Shown: positions 2,927-54,847 of the stretch, piece by piece
How positions within the stretch are numbered: position 1 is the stretch's first letter
Layout: every line of letters begins with the position of its first letter
NCBI GenBank assembly: GCA_963706325.1
Contig: CAVPLT010000003.1
Coordinates: 16,910 to 80,909 of the forward strand
DNA: 64,000 nt
From: an uncultured Nitrospiraceae bacterium
GTDB lineage: Bacteria; Nitrospirota; Nitrospiria; Nitrospirales; Nitrospiraceae
Reading direction: 5' to 3'
The notes under the pieces: generated by a model
Databases searched by the model: none
What the model was told of the DNA's origin: nothing
The model's input: the letters and a program-made list of their open reading frames with translations, nothing else
Made by a program: the position numbers and the translations under genes

Positions 2927-3560
2927 GGATGCGGCCGGCCGCCTGCGGTGGTTCTTCCGGTTCTGGCACGAGGAGAAACGTCGACAGTTCGGATCATTAA
3001 CACGAAGACGGAAGCTCGGGAGTTCTATGAAAAGGCTGAACAGGAGCAGAAGCTAGGACAGTTTTTTCCCGAGCGATGCCAGTCGAGCGGGTTTGCCAAG
3101 CTGGAACGGTTCTGGACGAGTTTTCTCGCAGGATTTACCGGGAAAACGAAGCGGGAGGAAATGCGCTTCGCTCGAAATGGAACTCCCTCTATTCGAGGGC
3201 AGGATTAAACGCATTAACCCCCGCCGCACTCAAAAGGCACGTGCGTTGCTGACCGAGGAAGGCCGCACGCTTCGTCGGGTGCTCAACAAGTCGGGCGCCA
3301 CCGAAGGGACGATCGCCGCCCTGCTTCGGCACAGCGGCACGACGCTGGTGAGCGGTATGCGCAACTCGGTCCATCACATCTGCAGCAGAAAATCGAAAAA
3401 CTGTCTTCCTTTGGCAGGAACACACGAGAGGCGAAGGTTCAATCTGATGGGCCAAAAGAGGGGCCGGTGGCTTGGAGGGAACGCGAGATTGGCACTGATC
3501 CAAATGATTCAGGAACGACGGGCTCGTTTGCAACCGTGAGTGAAACCGTGACCCACGCGA
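2927..3560 (+). pseudogene. Decayed tyrosine integrase (family A), paralog of 53514-54767, with internal deletion and frameshifts
   Basis: KTEAREFYEKAEQEQKLGQFFPER and SGATEGTIAALLRHSGTTLV match the intact integrase; the segment between VLNK and SGATEG is missing. Confidence 0.9.
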
Positions 3561-3599
3561 AGTGACTGGGTGCGAGGAAGCGCGAAGTACTGAAATTTC

Positions 3600-3644
3600 T
3601 GGAGCCGGCGAGTGGAATCGAACCACCGACCTGCGGTTTACGAA
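3600..3644 (-). repeat. att site copy 1: 3' half of tRNA-Thr(CGT)
   Basis: Reverse complement TTCGTAAACCGCAGGTCGGTGGTTCGATTCCACTCGCCGGCTCCA gives the anticodon loop, T-arm, acceptor 3' strand and CCA; no 5' half. Confidence 0.95.
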
Positions 3645-4011
3645 TGAGGACAGGACAATTATTGAAATGCTCGGTCATTCAAATGGTTTCCCCACTTTAA
3701 CCGTAAATACCATGACATGGTTGCTTCCCAGGAACTCGATAGATTCGAGAGGAACTGATGGTGCTCAACAGAGTCTAGCCCATATTTAACGTGTCCATTG
3801 TGCAACCAGGGACTAAGGCACGGCAGGAGGAAAGCAATCGAGCGAGAGCAGGTTTCCGACCGCACTCTAGCCGTACAGTGGCAGAGCGTCTCGTGTTATC
3901 GGTCACGTTGAAAACATTTCGTTGGAATGGAAAGCATCACTAGTCCCAGCGTATCGCGTAAATATGACTCCCAGCGATGAACGCATGCTCAGAGAGCGCC
4001 TCCAGAGGAAT

Positions 4012-4848
4012 TCACGGAATGCCCCCAGTCCTACTACGCTTGCCCCATGCGAGTAGTCCCACAAATCCAGAACCGAAAATCAGGAGAGTCATCGGCTCGG
4101 GCGCCGAAACTGATCCCGCTACAGGAATGCCGAAGATTGCATCAGGACGCGTAGCCGTATCATGAAATTCGATCTCAAAGCCCCCATTTCCAATAAGAGG
4201 CCCACTCGATGATTGGTACCCAAAAAGCGGACTGGTTAAGCCCGGTGCCAGTCCCTGTGAGCTTTGCGCTGACGTAAATGCCCAGTCAAGTTGCCTTTGC
4301 GGAATGAGGGCTGTCGATATCGTGACCCGCTGGGCATCTGACACCGTACTCCCGGCAAAGCCCAGTGCTTTGGAGCCGTCGAGATTTTTGCCCGGTCCGT
4401 CTCCCACACACAACGGACCTGAGAGCGAGCAACTCGACTGAGAGGAGGAACCAGTGGCACTCACGGCCAGGCCTTGATCGACAAATCCTAAGCGGAGGTT
4501 ACCATTATCGAACGATCCCACTGTCGTGGCTTTCACCGAATCGGGCCCCACGAAATCGAATACTCGTGGTCCTGAATTATTGGCGATCTGATAGAGGTAC
4601 GTAAATTGATGGGAGTCTAAATTCGTCGCGCCTGTACCGGGTCGGTACGAATCGGACAGGAGGCTAAGAAAAGAATCGCCGGGGGTTAACACCGCAAAGT
4701 TGACGACCACATCCCCACCTCTCACAAGACCTTGACTGTAGCCGGTGAAATCTTCCAGTGCGACAGCGTGGCAAGGTACAGAAAGAGGAGGAGCCAACGA
4801 CAGTGCCATTGATACACAGAATACAGCAACCGGCATTTTGGATGTCAT
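4012..4848 (-). CDS. PEP-CTERM sorting domain surface protein
   Basis: Signal peptide (MTSKMPVAVFCVSMALSL); C-terminal APEPMTLLIFGSGFVGLLAWGKRSR; GGAGGT RBS before ATG 4848. Confidence 0.85.
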   Translation of the reverse strand: MTSKMPVAVFCVSMALSLAPPLSVPCHAVALEDFTGYSQGLVRGGDVVVNFAVLTPGDSFLSLLSDSYRPGTGATNLDSHQFTYLYQIANNSGPRVFDFVGPDSVKATTVGSFDNGNLRLGFVDQGLAVSATGSSSQSSCSLSGPLCVGDGPGKNLDGSKALGFAGSTVSDAQRVTISTALIPQRQLDWAFTSAQSSQGLAPGLTSPLFGYQSSSGPLIGNGGFEIEFHDTATRPDAIFGIPVAGSVSAPEPMTLLIFGSGFVGLLAWGKRSRTGGIP

Positions 4849-5562
4849 GCCTGCACCTCCCGGTTTTGAATCGCAAGGCTGCCAATGGTTCCGGAATACT
4901 AGCATAGTGCCGCCCTATCAATGAATCATCCCCTTTGTGAATAAACGCTAGGGCAAACATATTACTGGTATTCTTGCAGGAAGTAGCGCACATGTTCGGT
5001 AATTATGATGAGTATCCGATAAGTGCAGGAGGCCGGAAGAATCGACGGTACCAGGATCTATCCAGTCCTAATTGGAGCCGATAAGGGCAGACTACAGGGC
5101 GGACTTGCGGTGAATCACGTCTGGTAGCTGCCCCGAGGATGTGAAAGTACGCTTCGATTTTGAGCGACCGGATGTGGGTTGCTGGGTGGCCCCGAGCCGT
5201 TTCGTCGCAAGCTTCGCGCCCTTCACGAGAGCCTGCTTGACTGACTCGCTGCGGCGCGGTTCGGTGACCGCCAGAATTGCTTGAGCTTCAGCTCGTTGGT
5301 CCCGCGTGTAGGAGGGGCCTCGGAGGAGAGGGCGCACAAGACTTCTAGTTCGACGTGGCTTCGGCAAAACCAGCACCCACCTTCTTCTTCGACTGCAGTT
5401 AATTAGTGCATCCCTTGCAAGCCGACTCATCAACCGCGTCACGCGGACTATGCAGACGGCCCATGCTAGACCTTACGTGAAACGGAGGCTGATCAAAATT
5501 GCTCTGTCAGGGGACGGAACCTATGCGGGTTTCCTGGGAATGTGAACTAAGGGAGGAGAGCA

Positions 5563-6219
5563 TCAGTCATGCAACACGATGTTCAAGAGGGAGCTGTGAA
5601 TGTGCAGGCCGCCGCTGTTGTATTGGATTAGGCCAAGCTTTCGGAACTTATTCATGAAGAAACTGATGCGTGACCGCGTGGTGCCGACCATCTCGGCCAG
5701 TGTTTCCTGGCTAATCTTCGCGATGACTGGTTCTGGCTTGCCCTCCTTTCCGAAATGGGCTAACAGCAACAGCACGCGGGCCAAGCGCTTCTCGCTGGAA
5801 TTGAAGAGTTGATCTACGAGGTCGGCCTCGATGCGAGCGTTGCGAGAGAGGAGATACGCCATAAAGAGCTCTGAGAAGGTGGATTCGTCGTGGAGGACTT
5901 GGATCATAGCGGTTTTATCGATACGCACAATCGTTGAGGCGTCAAGGGCCCTAGCGGAAGCCATGCGCAGCGGTTGTCCGGCCAGACAGCTTTCCCCAAA
6001 AAAGTTCGTACGCTCCAGAATGGCGACGACCGCCTCCTTGCCCTTTGCTGAGACCACGGTCAACTTCACCCGTCCCTCCTGAATGTAAAAGACCGAGTCA
6101 GCGGTATCGCCCTGGGAAAACAGGACGTCATTCTTCTTCGAATAGAGAAAAGTCTTTCCGCTGCCCACTTTGGCCAGGAAGGCGGTGGGGTTGAATGCGG
6201 TGGAGGGTGTGCGTGCCAT
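5563..6219 (-). CDS. Crp/Fnr family transcriptional regulator
   Basis: cNMP-binding domain (FFGESCL) and Crp HTH (ISQETLAEMVGTTRSRIS). Confidence 0.93.
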   Translation of the reverse strand: MARTPSTAFNPTAFLAKVGSGKTFLYSKKNDVLFSQGDTADSVFYIQEGRVKLTVVSAKGKEAVVAILERTNFFGESCLAGQPLRMASARALDASTIVRIDKTAMIQVLHDESTFSELFMAYLLSRNARIEADLVDQLFNSSEKRLARVLLLLAHFGKEGKPEPVIAKISQETLAEMVGTTRSRISFFMNKFRKLGLIQYNSGGLHIHSSLLNIVLHD

Positions 6220-6479
6220 ACGTGTCCTGTCTGGGTGGGCGGTAGCTGAATTAAGCTCAGAGTCTCATTTTTTAATGCCTTAGTTAGGTGAGGATATACT
6301 AACTCTGGATCCCCTGTTCTCGCAATAACAGCTGCTACCCGGCCTTCCCCTGCATTTCTTGAAGTGGTCTATTTTGACCAGTCAGTTTGCCCCCGTCATG
6401 GGTAGAATGATGGCGTCAAAACTTCGATCCTGGAGTTAGTCTGAGAGAAAACAGTGACGGATAAGAAGGAGAATCGACC

Positions 6480-6704
6480 ATGTTGTGTGCACGCTGTGGC
6501 GGTCTGCTCATGCAGAACTGGTGGGACTCTAAGGGGAGTGTCCAAGAACGAATGCCGAGTACGCGATGCGTGAACTGTGGCTGCATCAATGACCCGGTAA
6601 TTCTGGCGAACAGGCGGCCGTTGCACCGCGCCCGAATAACGCTAACCCGCGACTGCACGAACTCCGTAAAGTTATCGATACCTTCTCCACAGGGGAAAAT
6701 GTAG
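6480..6704 (+). CDS. Small zinc-ribbon protein
   Basis: CARC...RCVNCG motif; AAGGAG RBS. Confidence 0.65.
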   Translation: MLCARCGGLLMQNWWDSKGSVQERMPSTRCVNCGCINDPVILANRRPLHRARITLTRDCTNSVKLSIPSPQGKM

Positions 6705-6895
6705 CTCTGACATGCCATTCCGAAAGAGTCAAGGGTAGGCAAAATCAGAATACCCTTCAGCAGACTGAGCAGCGGCTGCAAAGGTTTTCTTGCCATCACA
6801 CTGGTCACATTACGTGCCTTCCTAGCGAGTTAATTGCCACGGTGGTCGCTTCCTTGCCCGAATAATAACCAGTATGAAGAAATTCGAGGATAATC

Positions 6896-8215
6896 ATGGC
6901 TGAAGTCACAGTTTCCCCCCAGGTACTCACTCCCGCCCAGCGTTCCGAGTCTCACTTGCTGGCGCAATACGCCATCACCCTGGTCTTGGCAGAGTCCGCC
7001 ACCCTGCAGGAGGCCATTCCGGCCATTCTACGAAGCATAGGCGAAAGCCTCGGCTGGCACTTGACCCTATTTTGGAAAGTGGATGAACAGACGAGTGCGT
7101 TGCGGTTTGCCAGCCTCTGGCATCACTCGAAGATCGACGCATCTGGATTCATTGCAGACAGCCGAGACCGACCCATTCAGCACGAGGGAGAACTGATTGA
7201 ACGTGTCTGGAAAACTGGCAAGCCGTTTTGGGCTCCCGACATTGTCCTGGAAACCGGGTTCCGCCGAGCATCAATCGCGGCCCGCGCGGGTCTCCATGGC
7301 TGGTGCGCCTTTCCGGTTCGAAAAGGCAACCGGATTTATGGCGTCATTGAATGCTTCAGCCCTGAGATCCGCCAGCCGGATCATGCAGTGCTGCATATGA
7401 TGGCCGACATCGGCATTAAGATTGGTCAATTTGTCGATCGTAAGGAGACTGAGGTAGCGCTTCGCATTTTGGAGGCGCATGACGAGGAAGAGGCCCGGTT
7501 GGCTGAAGTGGCACGCGTATTGGGAGACATCGCACACGACATCAAAAATATGCTGATGCCAGTCGTCTCAGGGACGTCCCTTCTGGAGGAGGAACTCAAC
7601 GAGTGCTACGGGCGCATGCCGCAACCGGTGACGGCCGCCGTGACAACGAGCCGTGAGCTGACAAAGGAGCTGATCGAGATGATTCAGAACGGATCCCGGC
7701 GGATTCAACATCGGGTCGGAGAATTTGCCGACTCCATCAAGGGACATACTCGCTCTCCGCACATTGCTCCCTGTCACATGGCCAAGCTAGTGTCGAGCGT
7801 GTATGCCATCCTTCAAATCCCTGCCAAGGAATGCGGCATTACCCTTTGCGTCGAGGGCCTCGACAGATTGCCCATGATTCAAGCGGATGAGAGCCAGCTG
7901 TTCAATGCCTTTTACAACTTAGTTAATAATGCCTTGGCGGAGGTCCCGCCCGATGGCTCAATCACCGTTAAGGGCCAAACGGAACCCGGCGGGAGGAGGA
8001 TTATGGTGTCGGTCGTCGACACCGGAAAGGGCATGCCGCCCGAAATCCGGGAAAGTCTGTTTACCTACCATGCGATTAGCCGAAAGGTTGGAGGCACCGG
8101 ACTTGGAACAAAAATTGTGAAGGATGTGATCGACGCGCATCAAGGGGAAATAACCGTGGAGAGTGAGCCAGGTGTCGGAACCTCGTTCCATATCACGTTA
8201 CCGGTGGGGGGATAG
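6896..8215 (+). CDS. GAF-domain sensor histidine kinase
   Basis: GAF domain, H-box IAHDIKNML, N box NLVNNA, DTGKG and GGTGLG. Confidence 0.92.
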   Translation: MAEVTVSPQVLTPAQRSESHLLAQYAITLVLAESATLQEAIPAILRSIGESLGWHLTLFWKVDEQTSALRFASLWHHSKIDASGFIADSRDRPIQHEGELIERVWKTGKPFWAPDIVLETGFRRASIAARAGLHGWCAFPVRKGNRIYGVIECFSPEIRQPDHAVLHMMADIGIKIGQFVDRKETEVALRILEAHDEEEARLAEVARVLGDIAHDIKNMLMPVVSGTSLLEEELNECYGRMPQPVTAAVTTSRELTKELIEMIQNGSRRIQHRVGEFADSIKGHTRSPHIAPCHMAKLVSSVYAILQIPAKECGITLCVEGLDRLPMIQADESQLFNAFYNLVNNALAEVPPDGSITVKGQTEPGGRRIMVSVVDTGKGMPPEIRESLFTYHAISRKVGGTGLGTKIVKDVIDAHQGEITVESEPGVGTSFHITLPVGG

Positions 8216-8376
8216 GATGCGCAGCTCGCGCGAGGACATCTTCCGCCGTACGCTCTCTTTCCCCTCTTCCTCCCGCTGTCAGCCAGAACCCCCGTTTGAG
8301 CACACCCACAAGTAAGGCATGCTTCTCGGCCTGCCAGGTCTGAAGAAAGCGGGCCAGCCAACCGCCCACGAGTTAG

Positions 8377-8559
8377 TTACTTCTCTTCTCGGATTGCTGC
8401 TTTTACTTTCGCCCTAAGCTCCGGGGTGACCTCCCGAATCCCATGTTGTTTGGCGTGTTCCGCGGCATTCTTGAGCACTTCCTCTTCGGTCTGACCACGG
8501 ACCACATGCTTGCATCCCGACGACGGATCGACTGTGGAACATTCAACAATCTTAGCCAT
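8377..8559 (-). CDS. DUF1059 family small metal-binding protein
   Basis: C...GC..VVRGQTEEEVL....EHAKQHG pattern; GGAGG RBS. Confidence 0.85.
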   Translation of the reverse strand: MAKIVECSTVDPSSGCKHVVRGQTEEEVLKNAAEHAKQHGIREVTPELRAKVKAAIREEK

Positions 8560-8907
8560 GATGACAACCTCCTCCGTGCCATATTTGTGGCCACGAAGGA
8601 TTGTCCGCGAAAAAACGGGGTAGAGTCAATTGTCCATTTCGTCATTTTTATCGGCCAGCTTCGCATCCCGAGAAGGAGATACCGGTTCTGGAAGGCTGGC
8701 GACTGTGGTGGCAGTCCGCTTACCGGCAGAAAGTGTGGGCGCTGGTATCCACTGGAGGACGACCCAAGCGTTCACGATTTTTTAAACGCCCCGGCGGAGT
8801 GGCTCACTCAACGACTCAGTCGGCGCGATGGTCCTGATGAGGGAGAGCATATCAATCATTTGCTGATCCGCGATTTGTTCGTCCCATGTCGGCGTCTCTT
8901 CGTCTGA

Positions 8908-9132
8908 TCACAAATCAGGTCCGGTTCTACCCGGATCCCACAAGGCGACCAGTTTGGCTTTATGGGCAAGGGCGATATGCCGTGCCTCGGACTGAGAGGT
9001 ATAGCCCTCCCGCTGGACGGTCCGGCTGTCGTACGCAACAGTGGGACTCAGAGGCACCTCTGCCTTCAATGTTAGGATGCGATAGTGCCATCTATGTTGC
9101 ACCTGGAATAAATCCAGATCGTATTGAGCCAC
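8908..9132 (-). CDS. Hypothetical protein
   Basis: Co-oriented with the neighbouring minus-strand small-gene cluster; protein-like composition. Confidence 0.4.
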   Translation of the reverse strand: MAQYDLDLFQVQHRWHYRILTLKAEVPLSPTVAYDSRTVQREGYTSQSEARHIALAHKAKLVALWDPGRTGPDL

Positions 9133-9270
9133 GATAGTGTGTCAATGGGTCAGTGATGAATGATATGAGTGCACGGTGCACTTCCCGCCCACGCTATTCC
9201 GAGATGTCCTCCAGGACGAGTCCATCTAGTCTGCGTCTCGCCCACGCTTGCACACAGCCCAACCGCCGCG

Positions 9271-9651
9271 CTAGAAGGCACGATAGACGGCCAGGAGATC
9301 ACTCAGCGCCACCGTCTTCGTCTGGAAGATGACCCGCTGCGCCCCCAACACATCGAGCGCGGCCACTTTTTCGGTGCCTCCCAGGATGGCCTTCGCACCC
9401 AGGGTGAGCACCCGCTCGCATTCTTTTTCCACCTTGCCTTTTACGACTGGGTTCACCTTCAGTATCTCCAGCATTTCTGCCCGAGTTGAGGCCAAATTCT
9501 CCTGAAGTTCTACCTCAGGAGAGTCCTTGCGTACCGTCTCGCTATCGCATCTATCAATGTATTGAGTCAGAAAGACGTACAACCGTACGAAGGTTTCCGC
9601 GATGTTGATGTGTTGCGCAGTCAATTCCTTCTGAAGCATTGGCGCTTCCAT
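9271..9651 (-). CDS. Hypothetical alpha-helical protein
   Basis: 126-aa ORF with normal composition in the cluster. Confidence 0.65.
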   Translation of the reverse strand: MEAPMLQKELTAQHINIAETFVRLYVFLTQYIDRCDSETVRKDSPEVELQENLASTRAEMLEILKVNPVVKGKVEKECERVLTLGAKAILGGTEKVAALDVLGAQRVIFQTKTVALSDLLAVYRAF

Positions 9652-9710
9652 GAGGTGCTGAGGGACGTCGCGGTCAGTTTCGCAGAGTGCTATCGCTGAT
9701 GATTACCGTC

Positions 9711-9959
9711 TTAGAGGTCTTCGGCATAAATCTCAAAAAAGGCATCGACACTTTCGAGCAATTGGGCTTTGATTTGGGCTGGTGTCCCGTTGATGACATG
9801 CACAGCCATCGTTCCTACTGATCCGTTTGGAAGCGTGACGGGGACGTGGGAATGGCTGAATTCTGTGCCCGTTCCCCGATCCAGCCGCATGCCATAGCCG
9901 AGCGTAAATTCCGGCCCGCTCTTGGGCGTTCCGTTCTGTGGGGGTACATCCACGAACAC
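9711..9959 (-). CDS. Hypothetical protein (possibly 5'-truncated)
   Basis: Protein-like ORF with GGAGG just upstream. Confidence 0.5.
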   Translation of the reverse strand: MFVDVPPQNGTPKSGPEFTLGYGMRLDRGTGTEFSHSHVPVTLPNGSVGTMAVHVINGTPAQIKAQLLESVDAFFEIYAEDL

Positions 9960-10190
9960 ACCTCCTTCCAGGTCGATCTATGACCCTTCTCCCTTTTACT
10001 TCTTATAATCGGCTAAAGCCGTCTTGATGGCATCTTCTGCCAATACGAAGCACTGAATCTTGTCCGGCGGCAAATTCAGCTCCTGCAAAATGTCCGTGTT
10101 CTTGATCCGCGCGTCTTCTTCTACGAACTATACGCACGGCTTCGCTTGAAGTGGACAGCCTGTAGTGGAACACTTGGCACCGATCCGGCA

Positions 10191-10409
10191 TTACCGTCCT
10201 CGGTTTAAGGAATTGGATCCTATAAATTCGGCCGGCGCGAGCGAGCTCCGCAGCTCGTCCAGGTGTTCCTGCATCTCTTCCAGGACATGGCCAATTCGTT
10301 TGGCTGAACAGTGACGGAGCTGGTGGAGGTTCCTCCCCGTCCAGATGCGAGGAGCACTGCGGATGGGCGAATGTAAAGTCATTACATACGTCTGCGGTGT
10401 CTTCTTCAT
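10191..10409 (-). CDS. Hypothetical small protein
   Basis: AAGGAGG RBS before ATG. Confidence 0.45.
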   Translation of the reverse strand: MKKTPQTYVMTLHSPIRSAPRIWTGRNLHQLRHCSAKRIGHVLEEMQEHLDELRSSLAPAEFIGSNSLNRGR

Positions 10410-10571
10410 GTCGTCCTCCTTGAAATGGCCCCCTGGATCGGGCCTTTAGGAACATCATTGCGCCCGATTGACCTGGTTTCGAGTCCACGAGTAACGACAG
10501 GAGATCACTCAGGACTATCTATGCTGTTCAAGCTAAGGCATAAGAGCGCTGTTTTGACAGCGTCATAGAGT

Positions 10572-10916
10572 TTAGCTCCAGGTGCGGTGTTGTTCACTCA
10601 CATGCTCGGCACCATCTTTTTTCAGGATGACCCACTCTACGTCATCGGGAATAGTCACGATCTTGAGTTCCGCACAGTGCCCGTTGGCCTCTCCGCGCAA
10701 CTCCTCCACCACTTGCACAAGTCGTTGGTCATCGCGGGGAATCAGCATCCCGCATCGATTGAGACTTGGCTCCTGAGGACTGGCGGCCTCAGGCCAGTAG
10801 GCCCCGTGATCCGTTTCCCTTAAGGCATCCGGCTGCCCTAACTCCCGCAACCGAAGGAATGCCTTATGGCTCACACAAAACCGGTCGTAACTTGTATTGA
10901 TAACGATTTGGGCCAT
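10572..10916 (-). CDS. Conserved hypothetical protein, phage-associated-like family
   Basis: IVINTSY...RDDQRLVQVVEELRGEANG..AELKIVTIPDDVEW...DGAEHVSEQHRTW resembles a motif I recall from uncharacterised phage proteins. Confidence 0.7.
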   Translation of the reverse strand: MAQIVINTSYDRFCVSHKAFLRLRELGQPDALRETDHGAYWPEAASPQEPSLNRCGMLIPRDDQRLVQVVEELRGEANGHCAELKIVTIPDDVEWVILKKDGAEHVSEQHRTWS

Positions 10917-10996
10917 ATGCCACTCTCTTTCTGTTGCTCACACGGAAACGTGTGAGGTAGATCGCCAACATGCCCGACTCTTGATAGGGACCAGGG

Positions 10997-11242
10997 TTAG
11001 GAGGAAGCCAACTCGGGGTCTTTATAGCCGATGTAGTTTCCCGTCCAATGCGAATATCGGCGATTGACCCAGGTGCTCACTTCGTCCTTCTTCGTCTCCC
11101 CATAGCGCTTGAGAACAATGTCGGTAAACGTCGTGAGATTCCCCTGGATCTCTTTGAGATCGGCATCAGTAATTTTCTCCCACTTGGCTTTCAAGGGAGC
11201 CCTTAGCTGTGACCAAAATTGCTGAAACTGTTCTTGTATCAT
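10997..11242 (-). CDS. CsbD family general stress protein
   Basis: QFWSQLRAPLKAKWEKITDADLKEIQGN...KRYG..KDE; AAGGAG RBS before ATG 11242. Confidence 0.8.
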   Translation of the reverse strand: MIQEQFQQFWSQLRAPLKAKWEKITDADLKEIQGNLTTFTDIVLKRYGETKKDEVSTWVNRRYSHWTGNYIGYKDPELASS

Positions 11243-11287
11243 TGCGTGCTCCTTGGGGTGCTGGGTTGCCTCGAAAGGCAACTCGTA

Positions 11288-11584
11288 TTAGAACTGGGGG
11301 GCGCCTTGATCTGTTTTTCTGATCCCTTCCTCTCCTTGACAGGTGCGTTCCGCCAACATGCGCTGTCCAACACTAGCCTTGTCGGGGATTCTCGCGAGGC
11401 AAGCTTTCAGCGTGTCCTCCACGGCCCCCGATGCCACATCGCTGTGCTTGTCCAGGGGAGCGGTAATCATGGCGCCCTTCACGTGCGTATCCTCCGCATG
11501 GGTGCGAAACGGGGAGAGCGAGAATGCGAGCAATAGCACGGATGAGCATAGGATCGACCGTTTTACGAAGACATGAGTTCTCAT
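11288..11584 (-). CDS. Secreted hypothetical protein
   Basis: Signal peptide then GAVEDTLKACLARIP...C pair; GAGG RBS. Confidence 0.7.
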   Translation of the reverse strand: MRTHVFVKRSILCSSVLLLAFSLSPFRTHAEDTHVKGAMITAPLDKHSDVASGAVEDTLKACLARIPDKASVGQRMLAERTCQGEEGIRKTDQGAPQF

Positions 11585-36687: not shown

Positions 36688-36689
36688 GG

Positions 36690-45986: not shown

Positions 45987-46439
45987 TTCCGGCCTCTCGT
46001 TCTAGCGTGTCGTTCCGGATCGATCATGCATGACATACACTGGCTTTTGTATCGCAGAATCCGTTCTGTGGCTGAGAATATATCCCAGCCCAGGAGGGGC
46101 ATCATTCTAAGGCGAGTCTGTGATGGGAATCGACCTGAGCATTATGTAGGTCATTCGTGCTCCCATGGAACTAGTAAATGGCGATAACATGCATAGTAAA
46201 GTTACTAGGACAGGATGTCGGAGTAGCGTTAGTGGAGGCCTCTAGCGTATATGGCTCCAGTCAATTCTGATCCGCACCGAGCAATTGAAGAACAGATATT
46301 TCCCAGAAGTGAGGTTCGAAATCGAAGCCACGCTAGGGGGGATCACCACAGGATTTGTTGAATCAAGACTTTTATGTTAGTTACCGCCTGAAGGGATGCA
46401 GCAACCCTGCAGCTTGTTTCTAGATTCAAACGAGCATCA

Positions 46440-46570
46440 ATGCGGTCTTTCTTAAAGCACTCTATCGTTTTCACATTATTCCTGCTCTCGTTCTTTGCAG
46501 GTTCGTGTTGGGCAAGTGATACGGAGACAAATAGGGAGACTGAGGTAGTAAATGCAGGTGTGATTGTGTC
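46440..46570 (+). pseudogene. 5' fragment paralogous to 34254-35204
   Basis: MRSFLKHSIVFTLFLLSFFAGSCWASDTETNRETEVVNAG vs MPFSLKNSFIVLQTLLLSVFALSCWAGDTELYNEIDVTNGG. Confidence 0.75.
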
Positions 46571-46726
46571 ACCACGCTTGGCGTCACGCATCCATCTGCC
46601 TGATCTCTCGCATTTGGCCCTAGATCGTGGTCAGCTTTTACTGATTCCATTAAAGGGTATTGATCCGTAACCCCTGACCCGTCTCAACCGACGGCCCAAC
46701 ATTTGTTCCTGTTTATGCGTGACCCG

Positions 46727-46975
46727 ATGGTGATTGCTCAGAGCAGAAAGCTTCTTCTTGCACTTGCGGTGCTCGGTTTTTTGCGCTGCGCTCCAGAGGT
46801 TCAGTACACAAAACAAGGGGCAACGCAGGAGGAGCTTGACTGGGACCGGTATGAATGTATTTCTCCTCGGGGAGCAAGAATGGATCGTCCCATGCCCGAT
46901 TCCAATCAACTCGATCGGTGCTTAGCGGCCAAAGGATGGCGGAGAGCCAGTACCAATTCTCGGTCAGCGCACTGA
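46727..46975 (+). CDS. Small putative lipoprotein
   Basis: Signal + C, KQGATQEELDWDRYEC...DRCLAAKGW. Confidence 0.6.
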   Translation: MVIAQSRKLLLALAVLGFLRCAPEVQYTKQGATQEELDWDRYECISPRGARMDRPMPDSNQLDRCLAAKGWRRASTNSRSAH

Positions 46976-47786
46976 TGGGCCGAAAGAGAAAGGTGACATG
47001 GGAGATTTAAGCCCAAGCACTCAAGCAGTCCTGGGCCCCGTGATCGTTCTTGCCGTGGTCGTTGTGATCATCTTCGTGGTGCTGAAAGTCAACGCATTCA
47101 TTCAACGAATCTGGCGAGAGTAACGTCTGAAATTGCACTCGGCGACAGAGTGCACCATACGATTGGTATTCAGTTATCGCACCGCCCTGGTTTTTTGGCG
47201 ATCTCTTGTCGTTCCGTCCAAGTGTTCGAGCAAGTCTACCTGTAATGATGGAGCTCTTATGCGTCACCTCCATACAACCGTAGTTACTGAGCCATGGTTG
47301 CAGCAGGCTACGCCAGGTCCACCTACAGAGCATTCACTCTCCGTATTCATCCTCGGACGGCAGGGTGACGCGCTTTGGGCCGATATCTGCACCTAAGACT
47401 TCCCACTAGGATTCGCATCATCAGGTAGAACAAGACATCCGGATTGAGAGAGGGCAATGGAGATACCGCCAGATGGATCTCGCCGCTGTCACCAGCCCTG
47501 CGGCCAGTGCTAAGATTCCAGTGGTTATTCCAATCACATGAGTGTTCCCGCCTTTTCGTCACTCGACATATAGGAGTGACCATAGGTCGTGCCCCGAGCG
47601 ACGGTTTTGCGCCAAGCTATTGGAGGTGTAGAAAGCGCTGCTTTCAGGCGAGCCTCTCAAAGGCTCTCGTGTCATTTTGAAAGGGTCTCGTCCGCAGGTA
47701 CTAAACAGACTGCCTATTTGGTCAGAGCATTAACCTTACGGATAAGAGGTCCGCATCCGTGCGCGACGTGAACCTAAGGAGCAACA

Positions 47787-49046
47787 GTGCCGCCCACGAG
47801 TATACAAGTAATCGGAACCGTCCTGTTTGCCGTCGCGATCCTGCACACGTTCGCCACCTCATTCTTCGAACACCTCGCCCATCGTCGTCCTACACATGCA
47901 GCGATCTGGCATCTCTTGGGCGAAGTCGAAGTTGTCTTCGGCTTCTGGGCCTTCATACTCGTGATGGCCATGTTTGTGACTGATGGCCCGGTGGCAGCCA
48001 CGCACTATCTCGACTCCCGCAACTTCACGGAGCCGATGTTTGTGTTTGTGGTCATGGTCATTGCGGGGACGCGTCCCATCCTGCACATCGCGCGATTCTC
48101 GGTTCACCTCCTGAGCGGAGCTCTTCCTCTCGCTGGGCCAATCGCGTTTTATTTTGTGGTCCTGACCCTCGTGCCTCTATTAGGTTCCTTCATCACGGAA
48201 CCTGCCGCGATGACGCTGGCCGCGATTCTTTTGCGAGACCGATTTTTTCGACAGGGCCTTTCCAGCCCTCTGAAGTACGCGACGCTGGGTGTGCTGCTGG
48301 TTAACATTTCGATCGGTGGGACACTCACGCCATTTGCTGCACCGCCCGTCCTGATGGTGGCCGGTACATGGGGATGGGACCTAAGCTTTATGATATGGGC
48401 GTTTGGCTGGAAAGCGATGATTGCCGTGTTGGTCAATGCATTGATCGTCACCTTGCTGTTTCGAAAGGAACTACGCGCGTTGCCCTCAGATGTCGAGTCC
48501 ATGAATGCTGTGAAGCCGCCAATCAGCATCATTGCTTTCCATATATTGCTGCTTATTGGGGTCGTCGTGTTTGCTCATCATCCGAGGATGTTTGTGGGGA
48601 TTTTCCTGCTATTCCTTGGTGTGACGCAGGCCTATGAGCGCCATCAGGATCAGTTAATGATTCGAGCGGGTCTGCTGGTGGCACTCTTTCTGGCCGGTCT
48701 GGTCGTCTTGGGTGGACAGCAACAGTGGTGGCTTCAACCCTTCTTGATCGGAATGAGCCAGGAGGCAGTCTTTTTCGGCGCCACGATCCTGACGGCATTT
48801 ACTGACAATGCGGCGCTGACCTACTTGGGGTCCCTGGTCGAAGGACTCTCGGAGGGATTTAAGTATGCGTTGGTTGCCGGTGCCGTGACGGGTGGCGGTC
48901 TTACGGTCATAGCGAATGCACCGAATCCCGCCGGCTTGGCAATCCTCAGGGGACAATTCGAGGACGAGGCCATTCATCCCACCCGATTATTTCTCGCCGC
49001 CCTGCCACCGACGGTCTTCGCAGCTCTGGCCTTTCGTTTTTTATAA
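47787..49046 (+). CDS. Putative Na+/H+ antiporter (DUF1504 family)
   Basis: HLLGEVEVVFGFW, GSFITEPAAMT, NISIGGTLTPFAAPPVLMVA and AGAVTGGGLTVIANAPNPAG. Confidence 0.92.
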   Translation: MPPTSIQVIGTVLFAVAILHTFATSFFEHLAHRRPTHAAIWHLLGEVEVVFGFWAFILVMAMFVTDGPVAATHYLDSRNFTEPMFVFVVMVIAGTRPILHIARFSVHLLSGALPLAGPIAFYFVVLTLVPLLGSFITEPAAMTLAAILLRDRFFRQGLSSPLKYATLGVLLVNISIGGTLTPFAAPPVLMVAGTWGWDLSFMIWAFGWKAMIAVLVNALIVTLLFRKELRALPSDVESMNAVKPPISIIAFHILLLIGVVVFAHHPRMFVGIFLLFLGVTQAYERHQDQLMIRAGLLVALFLAGLVVLGGQQQWWLQPFLIGMSQEAVFFGATILTAFTDNAALTYLGSLVEGLSEGFKYALVAGAVTGGGLTVIANAPNPAGLAILRGQFEDEAIHPTRLFLAALPPTVFAALAFRFL

Positions 49047-49832
49047 ATATTCCTCCGATTAGCCGTCGCTAAAATTTAAGATCCGAAGGTGCATCAGTCA
49101 TCGCGCTCTGTAACTCGGTGAGAGCAGCGCACTCATTGCTGTCCGGGGCGCGCAAGTTTTTTCTTTGCCGCTTTTTTACGGTGCCAGGCGGTCGATCGAC
49201 AGGTTGAACTTTCAAAGCAATATATCGAACTCGTCCTCTGATGACTGATATCGGCGCCACAAGTCGCGCAAGACCGGAAGCGCCGCATGACCATCAACAA
49301 TCACGTTAAGGGGGAAATGATGCCATCACTGAGGGAGCGTTTCAGGGTCATGGCGTATCTCTCGCTCATCCATATCTAAGCTTACCTCGTTACGGGGACG
49401 GAACTGCGGTGGGCCGGTCCAGATAGTCGGCCCAGGCTTCCTTTTTCCGCCAGGTACCGCGACCCGTTGATATTGAGGCGTGGGCGCAAGTGCGTGAAGC
49501 CCAATCCGAGCAGGTCTCTCGGCGGTCACCTAACGGCTGCCTCGGTGGTTGCGTGTGCGGCCCCGTCCACCGCATAAATGTTGTGAACATTTCAGGGCGA
49601 ACGATTGTTATCGTACGACCAGCGGCCGAGACAAAACTGGTCACTATTGCTCAGCGGCAGAGCTCTGTGCGGAGCATTATGCTGACAGCGGTGGGGTGGT
49701 TCGGTTCCTGTCCGGCTGTGCACACGTTGCGTCAAGCAGCTCCAGCCACTTGTTGGCGGACCTGACATAAACAAAGATTTGCCACCATCCGTGGTCGCAC
49801 TGACTTTTTAACGTCCTCGAAAGGCCATTATC

Positions 49833-50336
49833 ATGATTATGCTCATCACTCAGCACCATGAACTCGGAGAACAACTAAGCGAGGCTCTCAAGCACAGAGG
49901 CCACCAGGTCGCGATCCCTGCGCATCGAGAGAACATGCTCAGCATGCTCGAGGACGCTCAGCCCAGCCTTATCATCCTGGATCTCCAAGTATCCGAGCCC
50001 AGTGGAACCGAGGATTTGGGAATGATTCGTGCCCGTGGCTATGTGGGGAAATTCATTGTCTTATCGACGCAGTCCATGATGTCGGTCCTCAGTGAGACAT
50101 ACGCCAGTGGCGTGGATCGTGTTGTGCAAGCCCCTATCATGATCAACGGACGGTACGACCTGGGGCCGCTGCTATCCACGGTTCAGTTGTGCCTTCAGGA
50201 CCCCGCTGTGCGCGCACGCCGAGCCGATCACGGCGCCGTCGCACGACGTGCCTATGAATTGTACGAGGCTGACGGCCGTCACGATGGCTCCCATCTGCAG
50301 GATTGGCTCCAGGCGGAACGAGAGGTCATGCGATAG
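49833..50336 (+). CDS. Atypical receiver domain fused to DUF2934
   Basis: PSLIILDL; C-terminal VARRAYELYEADGR.DG..LQDWLQAERE. Confidence 0.8.
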   Translation: MIMLITQHHELGEQLSEALKHRGHQVAIPAHRENMLSMLEDAQPSLIILDLQVSEPSGTEDLGMIRARGYVGKFIVLSTQSMMSVLSETYASGVDRVVQAPIMINGRYDLGPLLSTVQLCLQDPAVRARRADHGAVARRAYELYEADGRHDGSHLQDWLQAEREVMR

Positions 50337-50452
50337 CACTGGGGCCTAAGGTTGATAGGCAGAACCTTCGGGCACCTCGTTCGACGAGAGGGGGCAAACA
50401 GGTCGGTCACGCATCGGCCACGACGTGAGTCCTTCTCCAAAGTTGGTACACC

Positions 50453-50650
50453 ATGACGACCCTGGCAGGCATGCAGCAATTTCTATCGCAAGACCTGTGG
50501 CGAATCGACTCCTCGGCCCTCTCTTTGCCCCGCCGCATCGGCATGCATGGGCTCGCGATTGCGGTGGCAATGGAGTTCCGTCACCGCTTGCTCGACGCCC
50601 GGGCTGCCGGTCTGGTCTATACGACCCTTCTCTCGCTGGTGCCATTTCTG
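50453..50650 (+). pseudogene. YihY/BrkB family N-terminal fragment
   Basis: LLDARAAGLVYTTLLSLVPFL, then truncation. Confidence 0.8.
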
Positions 50651-50907
50651 TTCATCGACAATCATCTTCAGGTGCTCCACATGGCGTATCACCAATGGAA
50701 GACGAAGCACAAAACGGATTAGGCCAAGCCCTCGGGCCTCGTGACGCGAGGCCTACCCTCGTAGTGGGCTCCTACTAGACAAGCGCCACGTCTATCAACT
50801 CGATGATATTCCCGTTAATTGTGCATTGGGAAACCAGGAACTGGCTTAGGCAAAACCGGCCGGTTGTCGAGAATAAGCGTGAGGAGGTATGATTCGAATC
50901 ACTCACT

Positions 50908-51870
50908 GTGGCGCAACATAAGAAACAGCATTTTGTCCCTGCTTGTTATCTCAAGGCGTGGTGCGATCCTAATGCACCTAGACACCATACTCCTTTTGTT
51001 TGGATTTTTGATAAAGACGGCAGTAATCCCCGTCGGAAGGGACCGGAAAATATTTTTCATGAAAGGGATATGTATACAATCCAGACTAAGGATGGAAGAC
51101 GGAATCTAACCCTTGAGCATGGACTGCAAGAGCTTGAGGCTCAATTCTCGCGCATTCGTAAGAAGAAGCTCGAACAGGACCGCCCTTTAGACCAAACCGA
51201 ACATTTCATGCTATGTGCTTTTATTGCGGCCTTAAATTTTCGAACGCCTGCGATGCGTGAGCATCATCGCGAACAGTGGGAGAGGCCATTACGCAAGATG
51301 GAACAGATGATGGAGTGGGCTGAGACTGCCACTGATGAAGAAAAACGTCAGGCAGCAGTTTTCTTGCCGTCTTCAATGTCTGACGAAGGTCTAAGCTATG
51401 AAGAGGTGAAAGCGCTCCACAAGAATCCCACGCAAAGTATGATAGGGACTGTTGTCGAAATGGTGACTCCGATGTTGGCGATGTTAGACATGGCTGTCTT
51501 TAGGTCTTCCGACGAAAACCTACCTTTTATAACATCCGACCATCCATGCGTTTGGTATGATTCAGCGGCATACAGGTGGCCTCCGCTTTATCGCTCTGCA
51601 GAGCTTGGGTCCAAAACGATAGAGGTAACCCTTCCCATTTCTCCTCGCCAAATTATTTGCCTTAATCGAATGAGAGTAGCGGGATACCGCGATGCCAGTA
51701 CGGCAGTTGTGGATGAGTTCAACCGGCGTACTAGATTTCAGGCAGACAAGCATTTTGTCGTTAACAGAAACGAGACGAAGCAGTTCTGGTTCGATCCCGG
51801 TGTTGAACCTGAAGACTCATGGGAGAAAGTGCGTGCACGAAACAAGACCGACAATGAAAGCAGCTTATAA
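50908..51870 (+). CDS. DUF4238 domain protein
   Basis: KKQHFVPACYLKAW, LPFITSDHP and LPISPR; lower GC. Confidence 0.9.
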   Translation: MAQHKKQHFVPACYLKAWCDPNAPRHHTPFVWIFDKDGSNPRRKGPENIFHERDMYTIQTKDGRRNLTLEHGLQELEAQFSRIRKKKLEQDRPLDQTEHFMLCAFIAALNFRTPAMREHHREQWERPLRKMEQMMEWAETATDEEKRQAAVFLPSSMSDEGLSYEEVKALHKNPTQSMIGTVVEMVTPMLAMLDMAVFRSSDENLPFITSDHPCVWYDSAAYRWPPLYRSAELGSKTIEVTLPISPRQIICLNRMRVAGYRDASTAVVDEFNRRTRFQADKHFVVNRNETKQFWFDPGVEPEDSWEKVRARNKTDNESSL

Positions 51871-52016
51871 ATAAATCGTCAGTTCGACGAGTAGCCACTA
51901 GCCTCTTCTTCTAATGAGGCTGAACTAGTCCTTAAACTAGCTACCTTAACTAACTTTTCCGCGAAGAAGCAGCTTCGCCACCACGGCAGACACGCGATTT
52001 TCATTTGATCGGGCAT

Positions 52017-52721
52017 CTATTGCGCTCCCACTGCCCCTGCTATAGCGCGAGACCTGGTCCACATGAAAAACCCGACGCTGAGCATCCAGACAAGCAGGAG
52101 CATGCTCGACGGCATACTGACCGCCATCGCCATTCCCGAGAAACCCGTATGTGCCATCAGCACACCCGCCCCTACCAGCGGGAGTCCACCCGCAAGCCCC
52201 AAGACGCCGAGCCATATCGCATAGCGGCGGTCAACCATGATTGCGATCCCATAAACTGCTACCGTGATGCCGAACAGCATGCTCCCGAAGGCAGCCAAGC
52301 CTATCTCAACCTGCCTCACTGCAAAGGCTGTTTGAAACACAACCGTCTTTTCACTCTCCGGTGCCGCCACCCAGGTATCGACCATGACCTTCAACGCGAC
52401 TCCATCAACCGCTCGAAGGGCTGAAGTCACAGCCACACTACCGATCGCGCCGGCAATCCCCAGATAAGCCCAATGCGCAGCAGGTCCATTGGCCATCGTC
52501 CGAGATAGGAGGACTAATGCGCCTACCATGAATACGACACCGAAGAATTGTGTGAAATGCGTTCCTACCCAAAAATAATTGGCGGCATATTCAGCAAACG
52601 CCTCAGGGGCATCATTCGGATCTGCCTTCGACGGGTGAAGATACGTTGCGACGGCTAGGAGGAGCGCCCCGCTGATCGCACCAATCGCGCCGATGCGACT
52701 CTCACCATGCTCTTGACCCAT
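52017..52721 (-). CDS. Multi-pass membrane protein (DUF4386-like)
   Basis: YLHP...WVGTH...AVDGVALK; about six hydrophobic segments. Confidence 0.75.
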   Translation of the reverse strand: MGQEHGESRIGAIGAISGALLLAVATYLHPSKADPNDAPEAFAEYAANYFWVGTHFTQFFGVVFMVGALVLLSRTMANGPAAHWAYLGIAGAIGSVAVTSALRAVDGVALKVMVDTWVAAPESEKTVVFQTAFAVRQVEIGLAAFGSMLFGITVAVYGIAIMVDRRYAIWLGVLGLAGGLPLVGAGVLMAHTGFSGMAMAVSMPSSMLLLVWMLSVGFFMWTRSRAIAGAVGAQ

Positions 52722-52724
52722 CGA

Positions 52725-53153
52725 CTAGCCTCCCCTGGACGTTTTTTGCAGCTCATTCCGGCTAGGACGATAAAGGCTCATCACCCACACCCCCAGCGGC
52801 ACGTCAACGCTGGCGCAAAACAGTGGCCACCAGGAGGGGACACCTGGGTTCGGAATGATCACAGGGTGGACGAGGTCAAAAAGGCCGTGCGCAGCAATGA
52901 CGGCCCCGGCGAGCAGTGGGACACGCGAAGATCCGAAAACGCCAATCGCCGAGAAGGCAACGGCAACAGCCGATTCCCAGAAGAGCGCGTGACGTGAATC
53001 TCCTAGAATAGCGAAGAGGATATAATAGGACGCGATAATGATGAGAATGGTTGGATAGAAACTGCGGTCCTGCTCAAATCGTGTGACCCTGCCAAAAGCG
53101 GCAATCCCAACCGCAAGGAGGACTCCCGCTATGAAAGGAATTAATTCCATCAC
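52725..53153 (-). CDS. Membrane hypothetical protein
   Basis: DRSFYPTILIIIASYYILFA...AAHGLFDLVH...NPGVPSWWPLFC. Confidence 0.8.
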   Translation of the reverse strand: MMELIPFIAGVLLAVGIAAFGRVTRFEQDRSFYPTILIIIASYYILFAILGDSRHALFWESAVAVAFSAIGVFGSSRVPLLAGAVIAAHGLFDLVHPVIIPNPGVPSWWPLFCASVDVPLGVWVMSLYRPSRNELQKTSRGG

Positions 53154-53221
53154 CTAGGTAAAGCGGCGCTAATCTGCCTAGGACAGCGAAGCGACCAGGC
53201 ATATGGTGCAGCGTCCTAGCG

Positions 53222-53407
53222 TTACTTGCTCTTAGGCAGAATGCCCTTCCGCTCCAGCTCCTGAATCCTGATCCTCGCTAACTCGATCAGAAATTCCTTC
53301 ACGGTCTTGCCTTCGTGAGCAGCCGCCATTTTGACCATCCGCATCAGGTCGCGGGGGATGTCGCGAAAATTCCATGCGCCAGTGCCTTCTGGTGGGGTGC
53401 GTACCAT
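53222..53407 (-). CDS. Small ribbon-helix-helix-like regulator divergent from the integrase
   Basis: WNFRDIPRDLMRMVKMAAAHEGKTVKEFLIELA strand-helix-helix pattern. Confidence 0.75.
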   Translation of the reverse strand: MVRTPPEGTGAWNFRDIPRDLMRMVKMAAAHEGKTVKEFLIELARIRIQELERKGILPKSK

Positions 53408-53440
53408 AGTGGCCGGAGCCTAGCACCGTTCAGACCCTGC

Positions 53441-53510
53441 GTCAAACGTCACTTGACAGGCATGACTATCATATGATATTTAGCTCACATTACCACAGAC
53501 AGGAGGGGCA
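53441..53510 (+). promoter_or_regulatory. Divergent promoter region of integrase/RHH
   Basis: TTGACA at 53453-53458 with an inverted GTCAA just upstream; AT-rich -10-like segment; AGGAGG RBS. Confidence 0.5.
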
Positions 53511-53513
53511 GCC

Positions 53514-54767
53514 ATGGCTCGAGCGGGACGAAAGGATCGCGGGTTGTTCGCGAAGAAGGATGCGGCGGGCCGACTCCGGTGGTTTGTCCGCCTCTGGCAC
53601 GAGCGGAAGGATCGGCAATTCGGCTCGTTCAATTCCAAAACCGAGGCGCGGGAGTTTTATGAAAAGGCTAAACAGGAGCAGCAGCTGGGACTCTTCTTTC
53701 CCGAACGGTACCAGCGGTGCGGGTTTGCCAAACTGGACGAGGTCTTGAAGGAATATCTCGCAGGCTTTAGGGGGAAGACGAAGCGGGACGAAATACGCTT
53801 CAGCCGCAAATGGACCATCCTCTTTCCAGGCGCAGGACTAAACGCACTGACGACAGCCACACTCGAACGGGCTCGGACGTTGCTCACCGAGGAAGGTCGA
53901 ACGCCGCAAACGGTGAATCGCTACATGGCCTTCCTCCGCCAAGTGCTGAACAAGGCGGTTCGGGATGGGAAGATCGCCACTAATCCGGTGAGCCGCCTGA
54001 AGATGGTACGGGAGTTCGCAGGGAAAACACGTTTCCTGACACCTGACGAAGAGCAGCGGGTCTGCGAGGCGTTGGGGCCAGAGTATGCCGTCTGGGTCCG
54101 AATCGCCCTTCTAACCGGCATGCGGCAACTGGAGCAGTTCAGCTTGCGCTGGACGGACGTCGATCTGATGCGCGGGCTGATTACTCTGCCGGAGACGAAA
54201 ACCGGCGGGGTGCAGTACGTCCGGCTGAACGAGGAAGCGAGCCTGATCTTCCGCACGCTCCATGAGAAGGCGCTCAAGACGCAGGCGGTTGCCGAGGCCG
54301 AAGCGATCGCGCAGGACAAAGTGGGAGGAAGCCCCTGGTCAGAATGGGTGTTTCCGAGTAAGAATCCGACCACGCATGTCGATCCCCGGAATTTTTACCG
54401 GCGGGTCTACGTGCCGAAAGTCCTGGCACTCGGGCTTCAAGGGGTGACCTGGCATGCACTCCGGCATACGTTCGCTTCTCGCTTGGCGATGTCGGGGGCG
54501 ACTGAAGGCACGATCGCGGCTCTGCTACGCCATAGCGGCACGACGCTGGTGAAGCGGTACGCGCACTTGAGCCCATCGCATCTGCAGCAGGAGATCGAAA
54601 AACTCTCGTCCTTTGGCAAAGGCACGCCACCGCCGAAGTTTCAACACGAGGGGCCAAAGGAGGGCCCGGCGGCGGCGAAGGAACCCAGGATGGGGACCGA
54701 AACGGATGATTCAGGGCGGACGGGCTCGTTTCCAACCGTGAGTGAAACCGTGACCTATCCACGGTGA
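53514..54767 (+). CDS. Tyrosine recombinase/integrase (family A), intact
   Basis: Catalytic R (TGMR), K (TKTG), HxxR (HALRH), H (LRHS) and Y (KRY) all present; N-terminal arm-binding-like region. Confidence 0.95.
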   Translation: MARAGRKDRGLFAKKDAAGRLRWFVRLWHERKDRQFGSFNSKTEAREFYEKAKQEQQLGLFFPERYQRCGFAKLDEVLKEYLAGFRGKTKRDEIRFSRKWTILFPGAGLNALTTATLERARTLLTEEGRTPQTVNRYMAFLRQVLNKAVRDGKIATNPVSRLKMVREFAGKTRFLTPDEEQRVCEALGPEYAVWVRIALLTGMRQLEQFSLRWTDVDLMRGLITLPETKTGGVQYVRLNEEASLIFRTLHEKALKTQAVAEAEAIAQDKVGGSPWSEWVFPSKNPTTHVDPRNFYRRVYVPKVLALGLQGVTWHALRHTFASRLAMSGATEGTIAALLRHSGTTLVKRYAHLSPSHLQQEIEKLSSFGKGTPPPKFQHEGPKEGPAAAKEPRMGTETDDSGRTGSFPTVSETVTYPR

Positions 54768-54802
54768 GTCCGTGCGGAGGACCGCGAAGTGATTGAAAAT
54801 AC

Positions 54803-54847
54803 TGGAGCCGGCGAGTGGAATCGAACCACCGACCTGCGGTTTACGAA
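54803..54847 (-). repeat. att site copy 5: tRNA-Thr(CGT) 3' half
   Basis: Exact 45-bp match; the flank is not the tRNA 5' half. Confidence 0.95.

Follow-up and report, generated by a model that had tools for sequence, protein, structure and literature searches.

The DNA stretch considered here, referred to as the window, comprises 64,000 nucleotides (positions 16910-80909 of the 81-kb contig C3, with whose end the right end of the window coincides) from the genome of an uncultured bacterium that we take to belong to lineage I of Nitrospira. It holds a stack of integrative elements related to a tRNA-Thr(CGT) gene: five attachment (att) cores, integrase relics, family-specific arm motifs, one intact tyrosine integrase with matching motifs at both ends of a 33-kb segment and, inside that segment, an extra copy of nxrAB, the genes of nitrite oxidoreductase (NXR). 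The original prediction, made from the letters of the window, described at least six elements stacked at one tRNA by three integrase families and likened the whole to a cassette array. The five tRNA-derived att copies on which it was founded are all present, each behind a convergent integrase 3' end:

3600-3644, minus strand: att core 1, tRNA-Thr(CGT) 3' half, 45 of 45 positions identical
12699-12743, minus strand: att core 2, Thr(CGT) 3' half whose anticodon loop is that of Arg(CCT), 1 mismatch
15714-15758, minus strand: att core 3, 1 mismatch, in the loop
21853-21897, minus strand: att core 4, 0 mismatches, attR-like left boundary of the nxrAB element
54803-54847, minus strand: att core 5, 0 mismatches, attL-like right boundary of the nxrAB element

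From left to right, the copies of this 45-nt half differ from the tRNA by 0, 1, 1, 0 and 0 mismatches, both of which (cores 2 and 3) fall inside the 7-nt anticodon loop, and they are spaced 3-33 kb apart. Crossover at the anticodon loop (site A) fits 5 of 5 cores. The predicted start exactly at the loop applies to two of them, in which identity with the tRNA begins at the first loop base; in the other three it begins one base earlier. All five 3' fragments share one orientation, which fits by synteny the tRNA gene at the end of contig C1, as the Islander rules demand. Scatter of the core over the genome was considered and rejected, the search having returned just the tRNA gene itself (the sole other near-full core), the five copies on C3 and two degenerate fragments (C1:673152 and C4:912054-912099). 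A reversed-pattern control gave 0 matches in 61 genomes, and an Rfam scan of the window gave 0 matches.

The integrase genes and relics of the window are the following:

487-606, plus strand: 3' part of a family-B integrase relic, 40-45% to family B by tblastn, DNA repeat D10, no core adjoining
2906-3556, plus strand: family-A integrase relic, internally deleted and frameshifted, with an A-type arm motif at 3532-3552
12157-12665, plus strand: family-C integrase relic, C-terminal half, frameshifted
15063-15713, plus strand: family-B integrase relic, 5' end and residues ~109-242 missing
19482-20321, plus strand: fourth integrase type, X (PF00589, E 1e-21), both ends lost
21080-21852, plus strand: family-B integrase relic, 5'-truncated, one frameshift
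53514-54767, plus strand: intact family-A tyrosine integrase of 417 aa with the catalytic motifs and an A-type arm motif (54734-54754)

Directly left of every core stands the 3' end of a plus-strand integrase, intact in one case and a relic in four. The families proposed for these five, A (two, one at 53514), C, and B (two), proved right with refined coordinates, as did the decay of everything left of the intact gene, where all integrases are truncated, internally deleted or frameshifted. The inventory itself was incomplete: it lacked type X (19482-20321), the B relic at 487-606, a D-like relic just outside the left edge of the window (near -1600), by which the array extends leftward, and the nxrAB cargo. 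In an integrase tree, read with the reference sequences G027 D and G035 B-like left out for their wrong reading frame, the relics of the segments fall in four clades. The closest relative of type X in the same genome lies at a tRNA-His, and that of the family-C relic adjoins tRNA-Arg(CCT). Two family-B frames (15107-15835 and 21423-21986) read through the att core, so that the tail of the protein depends on the adjoining DNA; a similar overlap is described for Dehalococcoides dsiB in the available part of the source (PMC3146451).

The composition of the stack becomes legible through its arms. Lambda-type integrases require arm-type sites at both element ends. Comparison of the flanks of 62 junctions, 57 of them from relatives (one with 9 mismatches, a false match, being left out), revealed a doubled motif that is common to the integrase tail and the far end of an element and is specific for each family. 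The 16 two-ended segments of the relatives divide into 9 D-D, 3 B-B, 1 untyped and 3 without an integrase, with 0 mismatched; arm type equals integrase type in 12 of the 13 segments having both, the other one being untyped. The strict A motif has four sites in the genome (3532, 22015, 54734 and one on C4), and the relaxed form is expected by chance at about 1 in 1000 per 200 bases. The ends found in the window, apart from the A motifs within integrase genes, are:

3645-3710, plus strand: eroded D-type end, 81% over 64 nt to the D arm, no D integrase in the segment
12744-14868, plus strand: D-type end with YqcI/YcgG and DUF1989 genes, motif at 12855-12872, homologous to the start of the G027 D element
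15759-15913, plus strand: E-type end, its motif a B-like variant with the offset found in B ends
22015-22035, plus strand: A-type arm motif, repeat D20, matching the motif in the end of the intact integrase gene
54848-55140, plus strand: E-type end of a further element toward the tRNA
60736-60806 and 62515-62611: partial E-type copies

One segment does not equal one element, as had been assumed. Two segments open with a D end, of which 3645-12698 is closed by a C and 12744-15713 by a B integrase, and 15759-21852 has an E end at its start, the type X relic inside and a B integrase at its close; only 21898-54802 has both ends and the integrase in agreement. Since D-type starts are closed by C or B integrases, whole junctions have likely been deleted. 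A stack of elements at one tRNA therefore stands by its cores and relics, with a different count: arm-motif typing gives at least five element types, and integrase relics plus orphan ends suggest about ten insertions within the window. An incoming element would cross over in the 7-nt loop and restore the tRNA with its own 3' half, and each insertion would push the old half and the earlier elements away. If insertion always takes place at the tRNA, the order should roughly track age, as predicted, in a lossy record whose older segments have been fused by deletions. A strict chronology is not borne out: the leftmost, most distal core is perfect, such that core decay does not follow position, and the intact integrase does not adjoin the tRNA. 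Partial matches to the E end occur in 4 of 200 other genomes of the family, and no cognate integrase emerged for it. Arm-motif typing offers a simple way of reading such arrays correctly, and it reveals the cross-use of tRNA genes that share an anticodon stem.

The same data bear on the likeness to an integron or cassette array, in which one master integrase would add and reshuffle cassettes at equivalent att sites in strict time order. Repeated near-identical cores, one intact integrase and cargo that varies among relatives do recall such a system, but the segments end in their own integrase relics of four clades, the arms are family-specific and paired with their own integrase in relatives, A-type arms flank one segment only, and the intact integrase scores 44.7 bits with the integron-integrase model, far under its cut-off of 265. 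A single integrase serving all cassettes through shared sites is not what the four clades and the family-specific arms describe. Each element brought its own integrase and arms, a 3' fragment and an integrase accompany 5 of 5 cores as in Islander tandems (the older segments being composite by arm type), and the cassette explanation, a loose fit at best, is very improbable and already largely refuted.

The self-consistent segment and its main contents are as follows:

21853-54847, 33 kb: family-A element, two ends and integrase in agreement
35518-36043 and 42606-43140, no strand: repeat pair bracketing the nxrAB block, 73% identical
37574-38863, minus strand: nxrB, 429 aa, protein 100% identical to both chromosomal copies
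38947-42426, minus strand: nxrA, unbroken, longest frame 1159 aa, likely start at 42390, twin-arginine signal, 98% to host copy 1
43111-44920, minus strand: LuxR-type response regulator and HisKA_3 kinase, upstream of nxrA
53222-53407, minus strand: 61-aa gene in divergent orientation to the integrase, conserved among family-A elements, putative regulator of ribbon-helix-helix-like type

We consider it likely that repeated insertion 3' of tRNA-Thr(CGT), with pruning by deletions, built the stack, and that its self-consistent part, 21853-54847, carries a third, unbroken nxrAB that its own integrase could excise. The position of nxrAB within the 33-kb element is plain, and the intact tyrosine integrase has cognate arm motifs at both ends; mobility is read from the anatomy of one genome and would follow from it. 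The most widespread nitrite oxidisers have nitrite oxidoreductase as their core energy enzyme. With matched att ends on either side of an unbroken nxrAB, and with its integrase intact, the element is a candidate vehicle that can be tested. A mobile nxrAB would let key nitrite-oxidation genes move between sites or cells. The finding also concerns nxrA and nxrB in their role as markers for taxonomy and counting.

The encoded NxrA matches the solved NXR subunit A (7b04_B, 1586 bits), is 97% identical to NxrA of Ca. Nitrospira defluvii (L190) and has the features of the Nitrospira-type periplasmic enzyme, i.e., a twin-arginine signal and an N-terminal Fe-S motif, with nxrB next in order. A stretch of 14 residues beyond the signal start region occurs in none of 9 other aligned copies. 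With a dN/dS of 0.010/0.22 for nxrA against host copy 1, the island nxrAB is intact and under purifying selection, with predicted expression and nitrite oxidoreductase activity. No sigma-54 motif was found upstream of the island nxrA, and likewise none at host copy 1. A search for amoA, the comammox marker, gave no match in the genome, and its control likewise matched nowhere.

The chromosome holds two further nxrAB copies, head to head with ~27 kb between them, as in G001, G004, G007, G018, G020, G027 and G032. Relative to these, the island nxrAB is a mosaic, with a 5' end at species-level divergence and near-identity to a host copy elsewhere. Against host copy 1, nxrA has a dS of 0.56 in its first 349 codons, of 0.008 and 0.02 in two stretches further in and of 0.21 and 0.14 elsewhere, and host copy 1 differs from two other species by dS 0.42 and 0.72. 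Runs identical to host copies reach 1256, 350 and 346 nt (shuffle maximum 226 at the 99.9th percentile), the longest, in nxrB, being common to both host copies; polishing artefacts could add to them. The nxrA 5' part is placed in the tree without resolution. The mosaic is compatible with an old duplicate, or with a copy acquired from another lineage I species, that would be in the course of being overwritten by conversion.

A real stack that is dead would account for part of these observations. Ordinary recombination would then have copied nxrAB from host copy 1 into a fixed island, and the integrase would never have moved it. In line with this, homology to host copy 1 is confined to an operon-sized block (37480-42511) bracketed by the diverged repeat pair, the nearest relatives of the adjoining LuxR/HisKA_3 pair occur without nxr (G035, G011), the element lacks replication genes, and off-site nxrA copies in other genomes have no nearby integrase: of those in G009 and G030 (both ~2.3 kb 3' of tRNA-Ala(CGC)), G036 and G023, the three having long flanks showed none. 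(The off-site count leaves out three nxrA matches of G019, whose contexts are repeats of the two canonical loci.) Against such copying stand the between-species divergence from host copy 1 in the 5' third of nxrA, and an integrase, two cores and two arm motifs that are unbroken while every other integrase of the contig has decayed. On balance, we regard a dead stack as somewhat unlikely.

The placement of the array depends on an assembly of 8 contigs (96% completeness, 2% contamination). The tRNA gene was predicted to lie intact to the right of the window. An intact tRNA-Thr(CGT) in the expected orientation forms the final 72 nt of contig C1, which breaks within the repeat; with the window ending at a contig end, the gene has no physical link to the array in this assembly. 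A join of C1 and C3 through their ends was rejected, as these do not overlap. In 16 of 16 relatives examined, the tRNA has the counterpart of the C1 end as its 5' flank, and 8 of them have that of the C5 start on the far side of the region; on these grounds the whole of C3 most likely sits 3' of the tRNA, between it and the backbone, a link drawn from synteny rather than assembled. The core of this tRNA is present in 31 of 36 same-genus genomes at 1 to 5 copies each, and the layout of tRNA, integrase, cargo and fragment recurs in relatives, with variable cargo. The tRNA-Thr(CGT) site is a genus-wide hotspot.

A co-occurring Nitrospira strain might have contributed the third nxrAB, or C3 as a whole, through an error of assembly or binning, but this is quite improbable. 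The fragmentation and contamination just given allow for it, as do the 1256-nt nxrB run shared with both host copies, a host nxrA copy 2 that is out of frame in this assembly and a C4 start that repeats part of C5 with a different tRNA-Arg end. Against this, both host copies lie on C7 between the canonical flanks that they also have in G004 and G007, and therefore the remaining two flanks must pair with each other. Moreover, 5% of the bases of the island nxrA differ from copy 1, its own 5' sequence recurs with 0 differences in a metagenome run, and C3 fills the synteny gap. Near-identical contigs occur in four soil metagenome runs of four studies, in 25, 25, 28 and 20 of 30 bins across 35001-55000, and many of the contig pieces listed differ at 0-3 positions, those with the island-type nxrA 5' end and the integrase among them. 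In one metagenome contig, 39 other letters stand between 35494 and 42316, which hints weakly at a variant lacking most of nxrAB. As for the two copies on the chromosome, the frame of nxrA copy 2 (C7:709591-713092) breaks near its 3' end, leaving 993 aa; if the break is real, the island copy would be one of only two whole nxrA genes.

Several points weigh against an excisable nxrAB element in a tRNA-Thr(CGT) stack. No excisionase, primase, relaxase or packaging gene was recognised in the 33-kb element, and no excised circle, empty site or transcript of it was seen. The tRNA lies on a separate contig across an unsequenced gap. The junction of nxr with its flanks is bridged by 0 of the 32 contig pieces listed, and one of the metagenome runs may be the source sample. 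No second genome was found with the 33-kb element or with nxrAB inside an att-bounded element, and of 78 other nxrA loci 3 have integrase traces at a distance of up to 10 kb (0 of 20 in an overlapping set), a window that would miss the present case because the integrase here lies 11 kb from nxrA. The D and B arm labels were derived from 2 of the 12 matching segments, and the relatives are kin rather than independent. A relaxed A motif also occurs at 32437, for which reason the 33-kb segment may itself be composite. The dS stretches were picked after the identical runs had been seen, and the whole island nxrA is sister to host copy 1 (99/99), which would also fit capture in place.

The origin of the excisable element can be approached through other family-A loci. 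The A integrase of G017 is 67% identical and adjoins an intact tRNA-Thr(CGT). Among the metagenomic family-A loci, 15 of 34 show an intact tRNA beside the integrase, in 14 cases Met(CAT) and in one Pro(TGG), and the 61-aa gene is 80-92% identical in 20 of them. Both ends are visible, 6-11 kb apart, in 7 of the 22 loci examined for the motif, and in those seven a displaced 3' half of tRNA-Met precedes the far motif. All seven encode primase/helicase-type genes, two an HTH_17 gene and one a small terminase. In these features and the integrase they resemble phage satellites such as PICI; the window element, in contrast, measures 33 kb and has of the satellite genes only the integrase and the small divergent regulator. 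The module scan drew on 47 of the 75 open reading frames (ORFs) listed from the metagenomic family-A loci and G017, and none of the 17 module proteins of these relatives matched C3. Likewise, Pfam detected no primase or replication module among the 87 window ORFs, no small terminase or capsid gene was found in those ORFs or among the module matches in C3, and C3 yielded no HTH_17-type gene. Relaxase, coupling protein and type IV secretion genes were absent by Pfam from the 87 window and 17 left-flank ORFs, those under 90 aa being mostly unscanned. The 33-kb element looks like a cargo-swollen descendant of a satellite, which could be capable of excision and not of self-replication. It would have descended from a satellite-like family, lost the replication genes and come to need a helper for replication or transfer between cells. 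The nxrAB genes would have been gained as an operon-sized copy, probably from another lineage I Nitrospira, and since then partly overwritten by conversion with a host copy.

A tentative extension of this history, which we hold possible and no more, is that entire nxrAB operons travel from one Nitrospira lineage to another on satellite-derived, tRNA-targeting integrative elements, and that gene conversion then blends the newcomer with the resident copies. If true, the discordance of the NxrA tree and the varying number of nxr copies would have a concrete vehicle behind them, in the form of an inducible mobile nitrite-oxidation module. As far as the available texts go, nxrA and nxrB of Nitrospira are co-located without nxrC, in several copies with different regulators (PMC6606698, PMC12342949), recombination between nxrB paralogs was observed in culture (PMC6606698), and the history of NxrA, whose tree is discordant with the species tree, is called puzzling (PMC12342949). 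Unlike the present case, no copy inside an integrative element is named in the accessible parts of these papers (PMC6606698, PMC12342949). The available portion of PMC5596200 has nothing on nxr islands, and no report of nxrAB on an att-bounded element was found in the literature, a search covering few of the subscription papers. None of 4 candidate viral contigs was confirmed to carry nxrA. In 33 of 78 nxrA loci (L185-L262) a tRNA-Gly(GCC) lies close upstream and points away from nxrA, so that nxr is there on the non-island side.

The array is a long, multi-family case of the known tandem accretion of tyrosine-integrase islands. The available account of Islander (PMC4383910) lists, under strict rules, 3919 islands, with 125 tandems that have at least two members and 4 that have at least three. 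They share tyrosine integrases, displaced 3' tRNA fragments marking the ends, the anticodon-loop crossover and several islands per tRNA with the stack described here, which differs in having five cores, no fewer than five types of end or integrase, and segments that are for the most part composite (PMC4383910). The ssrA islands of Dehalococcoides with vcrABC/rdhA are likewise in tandem downstream of one RNA gene and carry respiratory operons; according to the accessible text, the newest lies next to the gene, older members have lost modules, helper-dependent transfer is proposed, and position serves as an age proxy, with Pavlovic 2004 cited for accretion (PMC3146451). Those islands depend on a single serine recombinase family at tmRNA (PMC3146451); here one tRNA is shared by several tyrosine integrase families, and the cargo is a further copy of the host's core energy enzyme. 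The cargo-carrying and PICI-like tycheposons of Prochlorococcus also target tRNAs, are linked to phage satellites and carry a nitrogen-metabolism cluster, which duplicates and moves, their mobility being demonstrated in the part of the report available (10.1101/2020.12.28.424599). Their cargo serves nitrate assimilation (10.1101/2020.12.28.424599), that of the window nitrite oxidation.

Among the tRNA genes of this genome, Thr(CGT), Thr(TGT) and Arg(CCT) have an identical anticodon stem and differ in their loops, which may be why several families share the site. In G027 a complete D element with the same arm and cargo occupies tRNA-Arg(CCT), and its end and first cargo genes are 84% identical to window 12440-14891 over 2.5 kb. 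D ends follow a CCT loop in 16 of 30 genus matches, the core at 12699 counted among them. The simplest reading is that the CCT loop at 12699 was likely left by a D element that also used the Arg(CCT) site and entered with a one-base loop mismatch; a point mutation may also have produced it. Block transfer of the C relic together with the D element from an Arg(CCT) array was considered and is not supported, because the C tail is 86% identical to the host's own Arg(CCT) integrase and 82% to that of G027.

The YqcI/YcgG gene of this D-type segment (window 13418-14868) scores 270 bits, above the NCBIfam GntA cut-off of 145, and is paired with the DUF1989 gene. The pair recurs as D-element cargo at Thr(CGT) in G011 and at Arg(CCT) in G027. 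It may have a role with guanidino compounds, and Rfam found no riboswitch in its region. A 90-nt stretch following the arm is 83-86% identical in two different element types (13021-13110 and 22030-22120).

Shorter arrays of the same kind lie at tRNA-Thr(TGT), Arg(CCT) and Pro(TGG) (C4:1003515-1018532, C5:334396-349249 and C4:667830-686590), and A-, B- and C-type ends are found again in them. The repeat of C5 (347471-349249) at C4:1-1780, ending in a different tRNA-Arg(CCT) 3' half, suggests two population variants of an Arg(CCT) array. The two degenerate Thr(CGT) core fragments (C1:673152 and C4:912054-912099) carry E- and A-type ends inside other tRNA-linked regions, so that pieces of the array seem to travel as cargo. 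Defence-like cargo comprises a TIR-domain protein (ThsB-like; window 61129-62079), a DUF4238 protein (window 50908-51870) and an Abi_C/AbiJ-like gene (L001:16484-17275) that runs into the left edge of the window.

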